64,000 nt of DNA from assembly GCA_049325595.1 (NCBI GenBank), contig JBMOLF010000015.1:187238-251237 (forward strand), read 5' to 3'. This DNA is from Candidatus Babelota bacterium (lineage in GTDB: Bacteria > Babelota > Babeliae > Babelales > Vermiphilaceae). Both the position numbers and the translations under genes were made by a program. Below the pieces are notes generated by a model. That model was given only the letters and a program-made list of their open reading frames with translations. It had not been told where the DNA came from and did no database searches. Below, in pieces: positions 6,907-41,093 of the stretch; position 1 is the first letter of the stretch, and every line of letters starts with the position of its first letter.

Positions 6907-7041
6907 ATCATCTCAATTTTCCAATTGAATAAATTAATTTAAATTTAAAATTTTTTGACTTTAATACACACATATGAGATCTTTTTCTAATCTTATTCAC
7001 TGATATTTATTCCAATTCAATAGTTATAACCTAAGAAGGAA

Positions 7042-7893
7042 ATGCTTCCTATGCAAATGCAGTGTCGCTCTTTCATCACTTTAATACTGTTAGTACTATC
7101 AAACACACTTACAGCTATGGAAAAAAACAATCCGGTAAAACAACAAACAGACACCACGGTTTTCCCGCTAATTGCACATCAGTTGATAACTTTGTCACAT
7201 ACACGCTGCGGAGCACTTGAAGCTATTCATCCTCTTTCATTGGTTAACAAATCAATTAGAAAAGAATTATACAATCATAAAGACGACCTCAATCAAGCAA
7301 TAGCAGCAAAAATTGGTTATGAGAACTTGGTAGATGGCGATGCAACAAATGCTGATCTGGCAAATACTCGCAAGGCTATACTACGCGCTGCACTCGAGGA
7401 AGAAACCACCATTAAAGAGCGTGAAGGTTATACGTTTTTGTATAAAGACACAGGAATTTTTAAAATTAATGATGTGCTTGCTTACATAGAACATGGCGAT
7501 ACAACCATAAGCAATGAACATATTAATAATATATTAAATGCCTATAGCTGGTCTCTTAAACGCTATAACTATGAACTGAGCGCAACTTTACTCGGCTTAT
7601 TCAAACAATCAGTCAGACATCTTGCAGATAATGATCATTTACAAAAAACATATAGTGATGTTATAAAGCCTTCACTGACCGGATATTCCCCACGTATCGT
7701 ACAATTATCGTTAAAAACTGGTAAAGACTTGTTTGGATCAAATTTTTTCGATATTCCCGGTCTCAAATCAAAATCAAATACCATCGATAGTTTTATTGAT
7801 CTTTATAAAAAAGATGATCCAGTTATTGCGTCCCTGGTATCTCAAGCGATAATCAAAGATATAAGAAGTCGTTATGTGTTAAACAAGAAATAA
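7042..7893 (+). CDS. Secreted hypothetical protein, degenerate F-box-like family (paralog of 7916 and 55314 ORFs)
   Basis: Signal peptide ending LTA-MEK; LSLVNKSIR; LLGLFKQ; LFGSNF. Confidence 0.7.
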   Translation: MLPMQMQCRSFITLILLVLSNTLTAMEKNNPVKQQTDTTVFPLIAHQLITLSHTRCGALEAIHPLSLVNKSIRKELYNHKDDLNQAIAAKIGYENLVDGDATNADLANTRKAILRAALEEETTIKEREGYTFLYKDTGIFKINDVLAYIEHGDTTISNEHINNILNAYSWSLKRYNYELSATLLGLFKQSVRHLADNDHLQKTYSDVIKPSLTGYSPRIVQLSLKTGKDLFGSNFFDIPGLKSKSNTIDSFIDLYKKDDPVIASLVSQAIIKDIRSRYVLNKK

Positions 7894-7915
7894 TCATCAC
7901 TGAAAGAGTATCCTC

Positions 7916-8794
7916 ATGTTAGTAAAAAAATATAATGCTTTAGCAATGTGTTTAATCACCGGCAGTATCTTTGGTATGGAAAACAATTTTTCTAAACCAG
8001 CAAGAATCGTTTCTGAAGGTCCTTTGCAACGGTTACGACCTGCTGCATTGCGCGAAGAAAAAATTGTATTTTATTTAGCAAAAAATTTTATCGAATCAGC
8101 TGAAAATAGCACACAGGCACGCACTTATCTTAAAAATTTTTCTGGTGTTAACAAATTTGTGCATGATACCATTAAAAATCACAAAGAAGAATTGAAAGAA
8201 ATTTCAAAAAACGCAATTGAGCATATTTACGAAAAATTCGCCAACCACACAGAATTGTTAACCGGTGATTATACTAATCCAATTATAAAAAAAACTGCGA
8301 GTAAAATAATCAAGGCTCAGCATAGCAATCTTAATGCCACAGCATTTTTCTTTTTAGCACCAGATGATGCTCACAACCGTGCTCTTTTAAAAAATATTCA
8401 ACACATATTTGATGAAGCCAATACTCAAGTTACTGCTAAAAGCATCTCCGACATAGTGACCACGCTTGATTGGGCGGTTAATGCACGCTCTGATACCGAA
8501 TTATCTTATACACTACTCGGTGCATTGCGTAAATTCGGCCCGCAATGTAAAGAAGATGAGGAGTTACGAGCTCGCTATGTTGATATTGTAAAAGCAAGTC
8601 AAAAGGATCCGTACAATGATTACATAACAAAACCATTGTACGTTGTTGGCGAAGAACTTTTTGGAGAGCAACTTTACACAACTGTCGGCCTGCGATCACA
8701 TTCAAGCATTATTGATGTTTACATCGAATTACACAAAGATACTCGTGTAAAACAAATTATCACTGACGCAATTCAAGAAGCTTATAACTGCTAA
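7916..8794 (+). CDS. Secreted hypothetical protein, degenerate F-box-like family
   Basis: Signal peptide ending IFG-MEN; FSGVNKFV; ELLTGDYTNPII; LLGALRK; LFGEQL. Confidence 0.7.
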   Translation: MLVKKYNALAMCLITGSIFGMENNFSKPARIVSEGPLQRLRPAALREEKIVFYLAKNFIESAENSTQARTYLKNFSGVNKFVHDTIKNHKEELKEISKNAIEHIYEKFANHTELLTGDYTNPIIKKTASKIIKAQHSNLNATAFFFLAPDDAHNRALLKNIQHIFDEANTQVTAKSISDIVTTLDWAVNARSDTELSYTLLGALRKFGPQCKEDEELRARYVDIVKASQKDPYNDYITKPLYVVGEELFGEQLYTTVGLRSHSSIIDVYIELHKDTRVKQIITDAIQEAYNC

Positions 8795-37970: not shown

Positions 37971-38208
37971 TAAAAAATATGGCTCTTTATCCTGCGTAGT
38001 TTTAACGTAGCGGGATGCCAGTCGTAGCTTGCGTCGTCGCTAAAGCTATGTCGCACACGTGCCAAGCCGGAAGGCCTGGATAAGCGAAGTTAGTCCGTCT
38101 TCGCCGAAGGCTACTTCGGACAGTCTTCGCATATTTTGAAAAAGTCATTTAAAAAAATGGCCTGCCAGTCGTAGCTTGCCAAGCCGGAAGGCCTGGATAA
38201 GCGAAGAC
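37971..38208. repeat. GC-rich structured element abutting the tRNA-Arg(CCT) 3' end, copy 1
   Basis: Near-identical to 40793-41016; made of multiple imperfect hairpins. Confidence 0.9.
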
Positions 38209-38285
38209 TGGTGCGCCCGACAGGATTTGAACCTGTGGCCTGCGGATTAGGAATCCACCGCTCTATCCTACTGAGCTACGGGCGC
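38209..38285 (-). tRNA. tRNA-Arg (anticodon CCT)
   Basis: Reverse complement GCGCCCGTAGCTCAGTAGGATAGAGCGGTGGATTCCTAATCCGCAGGCCACAGGTTCAAATCCTGTCGGGCGCACCA; cloverleaf with encoded CCA. Confidence 0.96.
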
Positions 38286-38333
38286 TTATGCGTTTATTGT
38301 AGCGTTTTCTAAAAAAAATTCATCTGGCTTCTT

Positions 38334-40076
38334 TTACCAACCACCACCACCGCCACCGCCGCGGCCACCACCAGAACTTCCCCCGCCACCAGTACCAGAA
38401 GAAAATGTTGTCGTTGTTTTGAGCGCAGCGCCAAAGCTTGAGCCAATATTATTTACAAAATTATGTGGCTGAAAAGTAGAAAATGTAGTTCCTTGCGGTC
38501 CAACATACCATATTGGAATATACATATGTCCTTCTTGCTTGAGTTGGTCAAAAACGGGAGTAAATTGTTTATTCCACTGATCTTCTACACCAAGGGCCAT
38601 TGCATAAGGTAAATATTTTTCATACAATTCAGGTGTTTTTGTTGGTGGCGTACCGATTATTTTCATACGCTCTTTTTCAGTGGTCGTTAAAAATAATTTA
38701 AATCCTTGAATGTCTTCGTATAATTTTTTACCTTCTTGGGTAAAACCATAACACCGACGAGAAAATAAAAAAGTAGCAATCAATAATAAAGCACCCCATA
38801 GTACATCCCAATGGGTATGAGCAATACCAGAAAAAAATATAATGCCTATTATAATCCCAGCCAATACGATAAACCAGGCTATCCCAGCGTATTTACCATA
38901 AAATTTAAAATAATGCCCATAAGAAAGATCTAGGCGCGTCGCTAATTTTTTTAACGCCGCAAAAGCTTGATCGCCTGATTCTTTCCCAATTGCTACCGTA
39001 TTTTGTGTTGCAAATAATTGAGTAAAAATATCTTTTTGAATCTGCGGAGCCGTTTCTTCTGGCTCTTTTAATTTATGTAATACATAACTACCGCCAAACC
39101 AAGAATCTTTAACATATTCTATTTTTAAATATCCTTTTACTGCCATTTCTACCAATTCTGAAGAAAAAGCAGTTGCATTAAAATTTTGACGATTCAGGTA
39201 ATTCACTGCACCGGGCGTTAACCCTACGGGAGGAGTAAAAAGAGGAATAATCGTACCAAGTTTTTGTTCTCTTTTTATACGCGCATACGAATGTCCAATA
39301 AAAATTAAAAGCAAAAGTGAAACAAAAGCCATCCACAATTGGTATTGATAATCTTTTATAAAATAACCAACCTGTTCAATACCCGAAGGTTCTTGCACAA
39401 ATCCTTTGGGCCAACTTACTACAATTGTAAGCCCTTGGCTTTGATTATACGTTCGCTCAAGTGGACGAGTTGTACTAAAGGTAATAGATCCATCTTTATT
39501 TTTTACTACATTGTAATCATGACCCTTTTCCCCAATAAATCCCGTATACGCTTCTGCGTTAACAAGATGCATTGGTATATCTTTGGGCAGTTGCACTGTT
39601 GCTCGTGCACGCATGATTGGCAAACGCCAATAATTTCCTGTTACATTCCAGTACAATTCATCATGATCGTTAAAAAAAAGCAATTGTCGTTTAGTATTAT
39701 AGGTTATTATATATTCATGAACTCCTGGATCAAGATAAGTATTCTGTTCACCTATAAATAATTCTATGCCAAAGGGAACTTGATTAATAAATGAATTAAC
39801 TAAATTACCATTGTGCAACGTTTTGAGTATATCCACGTCAACATAATACTCACCGATAGTAGGTCGCATATACTTAGTTGGTAAAGCGCGCAGTATGCCG
39901 CGCTTTATTTGATTTCCTGTTGCTACGACGGTAATCTTTTCGGTCACTGTCATAGAACTGTCTTGATGTATTAGTAGATTAGCATCGAATAACAATATTC
40001 GTTCTGCTGCGTAAGTGTGTATACAAAAGATCCAGCTCAATAAGAGCTGGATTTGTATCATAGTTACTTTATTCAT
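38334..40076 (-). CDS. DUF2207 family membrane protein
   Basis: VTEKITV, DELYWNVTG..W, YEKYLPYAMALGV, Gly-rich GGGGGGW C-terminus; downstream of lemA. Confidence 0.88.
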   Translation of the reverse strand: MNKVTMIQIQLLLSWIFCIHTYAAERILLFDANLLIHQDSSMTVTEKITVVATGNQIKRGILRALPTKYMRPTIGEYYVDVDILKTLHNGNLVNSFINQVPFGIELFIGEQNTYLDPGVHEYIITYNTKRQLLFFNDHDELYWNVTGNYWRLPIMRARATVQLPKDIPMHLVNAEAYTGFIGEKGHDYNVVKNKDGSITFSTTRPLERTYNQSQGLTIVVSWPKGFVQEPSGIEQVGYFIKDYQYQLWMAFVSLLLLIFIGHSYARIKREQKLGTIIPLFTPPVGLTPGAVNYLNRQNFNATAFSSELVEMAVKGYLKIEYVKDSWFGGSYVLHKLKEPEETAPQIQKDIFTQLFATQNTVAIGKESGDQAFAALKKLATRLDLSYGHYFKFYGKYAGIAWFIVLAGIIIGIIFFSGIAHTHWDVLWGALLLIATFLFSRRCYGFTQEGKKLYEDIQGFKLFLTTTEKERMKIIGTPPTKTPELYEKYLPYAMALGVEDQWNKQFTPVFDQLKQEGHMYIPIWYVGPQGTTFSTFQPHNFVNNIGSSFGAALKTTTTFSSGTGGGGSSGGGRGGGGGGGW

Positions 40077-40084
40077 GCTATTGC

Positions 40085-40639
40085 CTAGAATTTTACTTGA
40101 GGAACTTCTCGCTCAGCACCTATAGTTAGTTCAAAGTATGGAACTTTTTCATAACCACTCATTGATGCAATAATACGTGATGGAAATGTTGCCACCGCAA
40201 CGTTATAATTACGAGCTGCGCCATTATAATAACGACGTGCAAGCTGAATATCGTTCTCAATGGTACCTAAATCTTGCTGCAATGATAAAAAATTTTCGTT
40301 TGCTTTCAGGTTAGGATAATTTTCAGCCACGGCAAACAATGTTTTTAACGTTTGAGTTAATCCACTTTCAGCAGCAGCTTTATCTTCTACTCCTCGTGCA
40401 TTAATAGCCGCAGAACGTGCTTGTGCAATTTGTTCAAAAATAGATTTTTCATGCGTTGCATATTGTTTTACCACGGCAACTAAATTAGGAATTAAATCAT
40501 AGCGCCGTTTAAGCTGTACATCAATACCACTCCATGCTTCATCAACCAATGCTTTTAGGTGAACTAACTTATTAAAACCACCAATAAACCAAAAAATACC
40601 AACTGCCGCAATTGCAAGAATTATTAATAAGGTTGACAT
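40085..40639 (-). CDS. lemA: LemA family protein
   Basis: AWSGIDVQLKRRYDLIPNLV, AVAENYPNLKANENF, RRYYN, FPS. Confidence 0.95.
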   Translation of the reverse strand: MSTLLIILAIAAVGIFWFIGGFNKLVHLKALVDEAWSGIDVQLKRRYDLIPNLVAVVKQYATHEKSIFEQIAQARSAAINARGVEDKAAAESGLTQTLKTLFAVAENYPNLKANENFLSLQQDLGTIENDIQLARRYYNGAARNYNVAVATFPSRIIASMSGYEKVPYFELTIGAEREVPQVKF

Positions 40640-40792
40640 GTTATTCCTTTCTTTTTCATGAAAGTAATTGTGATAACGTATGTAAAAAATGTAGATGGTT
40701 AAATGGTTTTAGCTCAAGACTTTATACAAAGATTAGTAACAGATTGATTTAGTTTATTTTTTAGTCAACATTTTATCTGCACACCAAACAGA

Positions 40793-41016
40793 TAAAAAAT
40801 GGCTCCCTGTCCTGCGTAGTTTTAACGTAGCCGGATGGCAGTCGTCGCTAAAGCTATGTCGCACACGTGCCAAGTCGGAAGGCCTGGATAAGCGAGTTAG
40901 TCCGTCTTCGCCGAAGGCTACTTCGGACAGTCTTCGCATATTTTTGAAAAAGTCATTTAAAAAAATGGCCTGCCAGTCGTAGCTTGCCAAGCCGGAAGGC
41001 CTGGATAAGCGAAGAC
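40793..41016. repeat. GC-rich structured element abutting the tRNA-Arg(TCG) 3' end, copy 2
   Basis: Near-identical to 37971-38208 but lacking a 12-nt GTCGTAGCTTGC segment. Confidence 0.9.
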
Positions 41017-41093
41017 TGGCGCGCCCGGCACGAATCGAACGTGCAACCTACAGATTCGAAGTCTGGCGCTCTATCCAATTGAGCTACGGGCGC
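41017..41093 (-). tRNA. tRNA-Arg (anticodon TCG)
   Basis: Reverse complement GCGCCCGTAGCTCAATTGGATAGAGCGCCAGACTTCGAATCTGTAGGTTGCACGTTCGATTCGTGCCGGGCGCGCCA. Confidence 0.95.

Follow-up and report, generated by a model that had tools for sequence, protein, structure and literature searches.

Hairpin modules anchored at the CCA end of tRNA genes in a Babelota genome, and their link to a small GIY-YIG nuclease

Elements that carry a tyrosine or serine integrase insert at the 3′ ends of tRNA and transfer-messenger RNA (tmRNA) genes, which serve them as safe sites. The REP, BIME and REPIN sequences are extragenic mosaics of imperfect palindromes that occur in many gene-less copies per RAYT gene and probably act as hairpins in single-stranded DNA (ssDNA). 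Here we analyse a structured element that begins at the CCA end of two tRNA-Arg genes in a Candidatus Babelota bacterium. The stretch of DNA under study (hereafter the window) comprises 64,000 nucleotides (nt) of contig JBMOLF010000015.1 (assembly GCA_049325595.1, positions 187,238 to 251,237). We conclude that the element is probably a gene-less, non-autonomous array of hairpin modules from a selfish cassette family, whose GIY-YIG nuclease would, through nicks that are then repaired, bring about the copying of modules between tRNA ends.

The general kind to which such a cassette belongs, a small GIY-YIG nuclease with hairpin repeats, is already known. Chenal et al. 2025 (PMC11893778) describe the Ssn proteins as small single-domain GIY-YIG nucleases of the cd10448 clade that are flanked by their own NTS/SRM hairpin repeats and cut ssDNA beside their own repeat. 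In phage T4, the free-standing GIY-YIG homing endonuclease SegB (PMC2330249) lies in a tRNA gene cluster; its site includes the conserved tRNA T-psi-C motif, and SegB drives inheritance of itself and of its flanks. Part of a 2006 survey of GIY-YIG proteins (PMC1564403) records a fusion, in prokaryotes, of an Slx1-like domain with a tRNA methyltransferase of the TrmH type. The class of cassette reported here is apparently undescribed. Our literature search, which had the supplements of PMC11893778 (possibly listing tRNA-adjacent homologues) outside its scope, did not turn up any account of hairpins anchored at the CCA together with a GIY-YIG gene, and in the main text of that paper, to which the count was confined, tRNA is mentioned 0 times.

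The source genome of the window measures 1.29 Mb at ~34.5% G+C and encodes 38 tRNAs and a tmRNA. The original prediction, made from the letters of the window, was that two tRNA-Arg genes with dissimilar anticodon and T arms are followed from the CCA on by one and the same element. ARAGORN and Rfam agree on both genes. The two tRNA bodies differ in those arms and, in addition, in the discriminator base (A versus G). Their trailers, compared from the CCA on, differ by one substitution and two 1-nt indels within the first ~175 nt, so that the three differences first claimed were recovered on recounting. Beyond ~175 nt there is a 12-nt indel and several substitutions, and the similarity stops at a T-run. 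Each copy (Table 1) opens with a hairpin (HP1) whose stem includes the tRNA's own CCA, just as predicted; in HP1 of copy 1 the internal loop is small and symmetric and the apex module is palindromic. The second inverted repeat that had been proposed is likewise present, 38121–38130 pairing with 38201–38210. The element folds better than dinucleotide shuffles both as RNA (z −3.5, 0 of 200 shuffles as good) and as DNA (z −3.3, 1 of 200 as good).

Both pairings covary. In an alignment of 36 first-hairpin units from 20 genomes, the CCA-containing stem (P1) is 92.3% paired, against 80.2% in shuffles and 13–39% when the partners are slid. Its three variable pairs show compensatory changes on both sides (one pair is G-C in 24 units, U-A in 7 and A-U in 4). 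Because the distal 10-mers have seven fixed positions in common, we tested that pairing on the variable triplet rather than on whole 10-mers. Anchoring on the hairpin gave 138 distinct units in the fetched loci; in 56 of them the distal motif follows at no more than 130 nt. Of these 56 units, 44 have a distal triplet that complements the three bases next to the CCA, whereas permuted pairings yield 16.1 ± 2.7 and 0 of 5000 attain the observed number. The distal partner lies ~80 nt downstream of the CCA arm. Since local and distal partners both covary, the arm that starts within the CCA has two alternative partners. The RNA minimum-energy fold joins it to the local partner and the DNA centroid fold to the distal one. 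The distal complement can be taken either as an alternative long-range pairing or as a terminal inverted repeat. Terminal inverted repeats are a trait of miniature inverted-repeat transposable elements (MITEs), and here they are 10 nt long, begin inside the CCA and covary.

The two tRNA-Arg trailers are members of a family. Related trailers in the source genome begin at the CCA of eight further genes: the tmRNA, four tRNA-Ser genes, tRNA-Arg(ACG), tRNA-Gln and tRNA-Ala(GGC), the last of which was missed at first (ARAGORN on a large multi-FASTA overlooked tRNAs that it found when sequences were run singly). All follow a common plan: CCA-NNN-TTCG, a variable apex hairpin and N′N′N′-TGG; a TGGC-N-GCCA motif and an A/T-rich spacer; then a distal GCGAA-N′N′N′-TG and a second hairpin, which is of the first kind but in inverted orientation. 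R1, a covariance model built on the first hairpin, has 14 matches in the source genome (E≤1), of which 10 lie at a tRNA or tmRNA CCA, three within such trailers and one, on contig C17, away from any tRNA. Five related genomes hold 78 matches (E≤0.01). The original prediction had left it to be seen whether all copies abut a CCA end: 66 of the 78 begin exactly there (62 at tRNAs, four at tmRNAs), three lie elsewhere in trailers, and nine fall outside trailers altogether. The share of tRNAs that carry the hairpin is 2/38, 6/36, 14/38, 21/38 and 19/36 in these relatives. Across the order, 112 of 151 genomes have an R1 match (E≤0.001). Copies within one genome are 95–97% alike across unrelated tRNAs and the tmRNA, whereas the orthologous trailers of a congener differ. 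Five trailers in the source genome belong to the variant of the gene-bearing tmRNA copy and are, by eye, near-identical over their first ~65 nt.

Comparison within the genus reveals gain or loss of these sequences at orthologous tRNAs. We used a one-contig genome of the same genus (hereafter the congener). Where a tRNA has no element, the two genomes are 82–98% identical over the 120 nt that follow the CCA; at carrier tRNAs homology restarts only further downstream. Directly after the CCA, the source genome has 167 extra nt at Ser-CGA, 270 at Arg-ACG, 190 at Ser-GCT, 191 at Arg-TCG and 502 at the tmRNA, the last figure including a nuclease gene. The comparison of filled and empty orthologous sites that the original prediction had proposed thus shows, at five carrier genes, orthologous sites with and without these extra nt. 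In the congener, Ser-GCT and Arg-ACG are just 9 nt apart. At tRNA-Gln of the source genome, a unit of ~68 nt stands between the CCA and an intrinsic terminator common to both genomes, and is bounded by CCA on the left and by ...GCCA on the right. As for the window sites, all that the congener has behind Arg-TCG is a minimal hairpin of 33 nt; behind Arg-CCT, where synteny breaks down on the 3′ side, it has nothing. This presence/absence polymorphism, with flanks carried along, is a trait of free-standing homing endonucleases. We also considered whether the three bases after the CCA are a remnant of the trailer before insertion, and rejected the idea because they do not match the congener's empty sites.

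Module number varies between strains as well. Metagenome contigs break at the repeat, and we disregarded joints of low depth (2–4). One run (X3) yielded a contig of depth 25 that runs from 38059 directly on to 38177 and leaves out the 117 nt between the internal repeats of the element, 30 nt being common to both sides; it is a strain variant with a one-unit form behind tRNA-Arg(CCT).

The family is tied to a small GIY-YIG gene. Besides UvrC, the relatives hold 0–8 small GIY-YIG open reading frames each, and 27 such loci fall into three subfamilies (A, B and C), each with its own flanking repeats. In this first sample, a same-strand tRNA or tmRNA lies 120–200 nt upstream of 10 of the 13 type-A genes and of 0 of the 14 type-B and type-C genes. 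In a second, order-wide sample the corresponding figure for type A is 23 of 30 (114–570 nt upstream), and 29 of the 30 have an R1 match upstream on the gene's strand (E≤0.005). Pooling the samples, which have three loci in common, places 31 of 40 distinct type-A loci behind a tRNA or tmRNA. Hairpin modules also occur on the 3′ side of the gene in 6 of 13 loci, by eye. In two genomes (G052 and G061) the type-A gene stands 137–139 nt after the ortholog of tRNA-Arg(CCT). The source genome has one type-A gene (69559–69798 of contig C7), behind the tmRNA, and the congener has its gene behind Ala-GGC. A GIY-YIG association had been suggested in the original prediction; the tie to this small gene, with one copy in the source genome, bears it out. 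The window itself, as claimed, contains no GIY-YIG gene and no Y1 transposase gene, the two families checked; every match in the genome lies outside it.

Type-A proteins are ~80 residues long and consist of a single domain (PF01541 over residues 1–72, with an overlapping weak T5orf172 match). Thirteen of them show no variation at the catalytic residues Tyr, Tyr, Arg, His-Asn and Glu. The DNA-binding modules that accompany the catalytic domain of homing endonucleases are absent from this 80-residue protein. Its nearest solved relatives in the PDB are UPF0213 proteins and SLX1, and we assign type A to the SLX1/UPF0213 branch of GIY-YIG. About 12 of 150 listed type-A gene copies have in-frame stops. 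In the order, gene and hairpins occur together in 84 of 151 genomes; 4 genomes contain the gene without hairpins, 28 contain hairpins without the gene, and 35 have neither.

Relatives of the type-A protein occur in many phyla. A scan of named GTDB genomes with the source-genome protein returned 42 loci at 34–79% identity, in records labelled Dependentiae, Patescibacteria groups, Verrucomicrobiota, Alpha- and Gammaproteobacteria (among them a cultured Phenylobacterium, locus L158), Bacteroidales and others. Within 600 nt upstream, 20 of the 42 have a tRNA or tmRNA on the same strand, as do 12 of the 16 best (E≤4e-15); 13 of the 42 have an R1 match (E≤0.1). At two of the named loci (L159 and L156) the tRNA or tmRNA 3′ ends printed by ARAGORN do not finish in CCA. 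The hairpin of L159 seems to start right after the discriminator and to supply the CA-containing arm itself; at L156 a CCA appears two bases upstream of the printed end.

The full cassette comprises a tRNA or tmRNA CCA, HP1, an A/T-rich spacer, the inverted second hairpin (HP2), the type-A gene and further hairpin modules. Over its final ~45 nt the window element matches a sequence that begins ~30 nt after the type-A stop codon on contig C7 (84%, E 0.002), so that the element reads as the 5′ flank of a cassette joined to its 3′ flank, without the gene. The apex module recurs, inverted and at 97% identity, in the 3′ flank of the tmRNA cassette.

How might such modules spread? We propose that the type-A nuclease, by analogy with Ssn and SLX1, would recognise the hairpins of its own cassette, extruded or in single-stranded form, and nick them. 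If another copy then served as template for repair, the modules could spread among tRNA 3′ ends and be homogenised there. The sole type-A gene of the source genome, behind the tmRNA, would act in trans on both tRNA-Arg copies. A site behind tRNA genes may offer a safe location, probably with read-through transcription from tRNA promoters. What supports a mobile element acted on in trans is that the family is anchored at the CCA, is present or absent within a genus and is tied to a nuclease gene; its two covarying pairings are a further observation. To this extent the original prediction of a tRNA-3′-linked, non-autonomous mobile element stands; the HUH/RAYT connection that accompanied it does not.

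Several points weigh against our proposal. The mechanism, with its cleavage, nicking and spread, is drawn by analogy. Three bases (CCA) alone cannot account for the targeting. The right-hand boundary is clean at tRNA-Gln only, a search for a consistent target-site duplication found none, and neither Arg site has an empty allele in the contigs of four metagenome runs. As the genomes are kin, the odds ratio of 26 for co-occurrence of gene and hairpins overstates independence. Moreover, in the 28 genomes counted above as having hairpins without the gene, a strong type-A gene is missing, and hairpins therefore persist without the nuclease; eight of these genomes have 8–13 matches, and one is 99% complete. 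Nor do mismatch counts decide which strand folds (G-T versus A-C: 5 versus 0 in the distal helix, 8 versus 6 in P1).

The trailer might instead serve the host, as a CCA-sequestering hairpin that acts as a conserved signal for 3′ processing, stabilisation or termination and beside which GIY-YIG genes merely settle. An architecture kept with compensatory changes across genera and phyla would suit such a signal, as would the T-run that often follows the unit, the genomes with hairpins and no gene, and the genome in which as many as 21 of 38 tRNAs carry the hairpin. We nevertheless consider it unlikely. Close relatives range from that figure down to 2 of 38, and the orthologous tRNAs of the congener manage without the element. 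At tRNA-Gln the module separates the CCA from a native terminator, and a consensus scan calls no intrinsic terminator inside the element, where 7 bases lie between stem and T-run, as against the 0–2 nt that separate the G+C-rich stem of an intrinsic terminator from its T-run. The likeness of copies across unrelated genes of one genome, set against divergent trailers in the congener, also speaks against a host signal. Quite unlikely, in our judgement, is a cassette that works at the RNA level, with hairpins acting in a tRNA–nuclease co-transcript, separating tRNA from mRNA or controlling translation, and a type-A enzyme that may cut RNA. Every counted tRNA-linked gene is on the strand of its tRNA, 46–570 nt downstream, a promoter-like leader precedes some of the non-tRNA copies, and the distal helix has its G-T excess; the survey that records the TrmH fusion suggests a role in RNA metabolism, in the part cited above (PMC1564403). 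On the other side, most copies, including both in the window, have no gene behind them, P1 has no strand bias, and the characterised small GIY-YIG relatives, the Ssn proteins, cut ssDNA in the account of PMC11893778. As the main explanation we disfavour a structured trailer RNA, which the original prediction named as its second option; a signal for processing or termination in the host, or an RNA-level role in the co-transcript, may be added to the roles of a mobile cassette.

Mobilisation by a Y1 (HUH) transposase, the element being a REP/BIME or an IS200-derived MITE, appears very improbable. In its favour, the element is built up, mosaic fashion, from short palindromes in either orientation, and the source genome has two intact and two broken Y1 transposase genes. 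Those genes, however, are of IS200 type with unrelated end hairpins of their own, and none is flanked by HP1 or HP2. We rejected them as mobilisers, all six PF01797 matches being IS200-type genes or fragments with unrelated ends. One of the Y1 copies sits inside a coding region. A supposed likeness of the apex module to enterobacterial REP was dropped too, BLAST having found no match in E. coli genomes (E≤1); a phage collection gave no match either. An Rfam scan of the region (E≤10) returned the tRNAs and chance-level matches and no family for the element, so an already described Rfam or REP family, which would have undone the original prediction, did not emerge. Its other refuting case, two copies from a segmental duplication of the tRNA-Arg loci or an assembly artefact, is scarcely credible. 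The copies are near-identical and 2.8 kb apart, and short-read contigs do break at the repeat. Against this, the similarity begins exactly at the CCA while tRNA bodies, discriminators and 5′ leaders differ; the tRNA-Arg pair is old and syntenic in other genera; the element is present in independent sequencing runs; and the eight other carriers and the matches in relatives leave no room for a family of two.

Table 1. Coordinates of the element, its parts and associated genes (window positions unless a contig is given)
Feature	Position	Strand	Basis or remark
tRNA-Arg(CCT)	38209–38285	minus	ARAGORN, Rfam; CCA 38209–38211 forms the opening three bases of hairpin 1
tRNA-Arg(TCG)	41017–41093	minus	ARAGORN, Rfam; CCA at 41017–41019
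Copy 1 of element, behind tRNA-Arg(CCT)	37972–38211	minus	~230–240 nt per copy
Copy 1, HP1	38165–38211	minus	CCA and 3 nt paired with 3 nt and TGG; R1 E 1.7e-7
Copy 1, conserved TGGC-N2-GCCA motif	38158–38167	minus	TGG in common with HP1; second CCA closes the unit
Copy 1, T-run and A/T-rich spacer	38131–38157	minus	
Copy 1, distal 10-nt complement	38121–38130	minus	Pairs with bases starting inside the CCA (38201–38210)
Copy 1, HP2	38093–38121	minus	HP1-like module, inverted
Copy 1, second HP1-like unit	38016–38088	minus	Nested insert of ~28 nt
Copy 1, module like the 3′ flank of the type-A stop codon	37980–38017	minus	Resembles the tmRNA cassette of the source genome
Copy 1, terminal T-run	37972–37979	minus	End of similarity between the copies
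Copy 2 of element, behind tRNA-Arg(TCG)	40794–41019	minus	
Copy 2, HP1	40973–41019	minus	Identical to HP1 of copy 1
Copy 2, distal 10-nt complement	40928–40937	minus	
Copy 2, HP2	40900–40928	minus	
Copy 2, second HP1-like unit	40836–40895	minus	12 nt shorter than its copy 1 counterpart
Copy 2, module resembling cassette 3′ flank, and terminal T-run	40794–40837	minus	
IS200/IS605-type Y1 gene	C15 98579–98941		Own end hairpins
IS200/IS605-type Y1 gene	C19 7018–7380		Own end hairpins
IS200/IS605-type Y1 gene, broken	C9 90303		Own end hairpins
IS200/IS605-type Y1 gene, broken	C17 2221		Own end hairpins

Some neighbouring features deserve mention. The source genome has three paralogous large serine-recombinase genes (C10 99716–101161, C10 282508–283660 and C7 ~6920–8362), one intact (483 residues) and two disrupted. 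They converge on tRNA-Arg(TCT), tRNA-Asp and tRNA-Glu and end within a few bases of the CCA; the congener has none at these tRNAs. This looks like a second, unrelated integrative element that targets tRNA ends. A 110-nt remnant (C17 377–486) adjoins the sole non-tRNA hairpin copy of the source genome. Hairpin copies without a tRNA often lie behind a common leader of ~90 nt (C17 200–290 in the source genome; L086, L087, L091, L101, L103 and L113), which contains hexamers resembling those of promoters, together with a short palindrome mirroring the end of the serine-recombinase gene; it could be a promoter or an att-like half-site. Between the two tRNA-Arg genes of the window lies an open reading frame of 580 codons that ends in a glycine-rich low-complexity tail (38334–38400).

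If the window element does belong to a family of selfish cassettes, these would account for a feature of tRNA loci that recurs, unannotated, in Dependentiae, Patescibacteria and several other phyla, and many 80-residue proteins labelled only "GIY-YIG nuclease family protein" would gain a natural substrate as well as a function. A minimal nuclease able to read a defined hairpin beside the universal CCA would lend itself to direct biochemical testing and might be of use as an ssDNA tool. There is a lesson for annotation too: these elements break short-read assemblies at tRNA genes and can pass for terminators or small RNAs. It is also possible, though we stop just short of calling it probable, that the cassettes form a cross-phylum mobile class that targets one exact position, the first base beyond the CCA in any tRNA or tmRNA gene, with the gene's own CCA built into a hairpin that a minimal structure-specific nuclease reads as ssDNA. 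That would amount to a third route to tRNA-gene targeting, beside integrases and retrotransposon tethering, and to a built-in two-state DNA (or RNA) switch.

How, then, does this family compare with known systems? With integrase elements it shares the use of tRNA and tmRNA 3′ ends as insertion sites, and three tRNA CCA ends of the source genome indeed abut serine-recombinase genes. The hairpin family, by contrast, has no integrase, is 35–500 nt long, modular and hairpin-based, and does not duplicate the tRNA 3′ end. Like REP sequences and their RAYT genes, it is a mosaic of palindromes in both orientations with many gene-less copies per enzyme gene; unlike them, it has a GIY-YIG enzyme in place of an HUH Y1 enzyme, no RAYT gene flanked by its repeats, and strict anchoring at tRNA ends. 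MITEs derive from a transposase-encoding parent; here the parent cassette encodes a nuclease and not a known transposase. SegB (PMC2330249) resembles type A in being a GIY-YIG nuclease gene lodged among tRNA genes. SegB, however, is multi-domain with a 27-bp duplex site, whereas type A is an 80-residue catalytic domain only, with structured repeats and a junction exactly at the CCA.

Among published systems, the nearest analogue is the Ssn nuclease with its NTS repeat, and type A appears to be a different subfamily. In both systems, going by PMC11893778, a small single-domain GIY-YIG gene is flanked by its own hairpin repeats, gene-less repeat copies are scattered in the genome, and gene and repeats co-occur across genomes. 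The relatives studied here also hold a true NTS-type pair, which is our type C. Its loci (L059–L061, L065 and L072), like those of type B (L053–L057 and L067–L070), are each bracketed by their own inverted repeats; the type-C repeats resemble the published NTS, one locus coming within 4 mismatches. Type A stands apart. Its median identity to the NTS-type proteins of these genomes, a proxy for clade membership, is ~35%, and an NTS-like repeat (up to 4 mismatches) occurs in 0 of 13 type-A loci. Type-A repeats number tens per genome rather than hundreds, and instead of being dispersed ~85% of them start exactly at a tRNA or tmRNA CCA, which is part of their stem. The cassettes would thereby extend the Ssn-type partnership of nuclease and hairpin to a site-specific, tRNA-anchored form.

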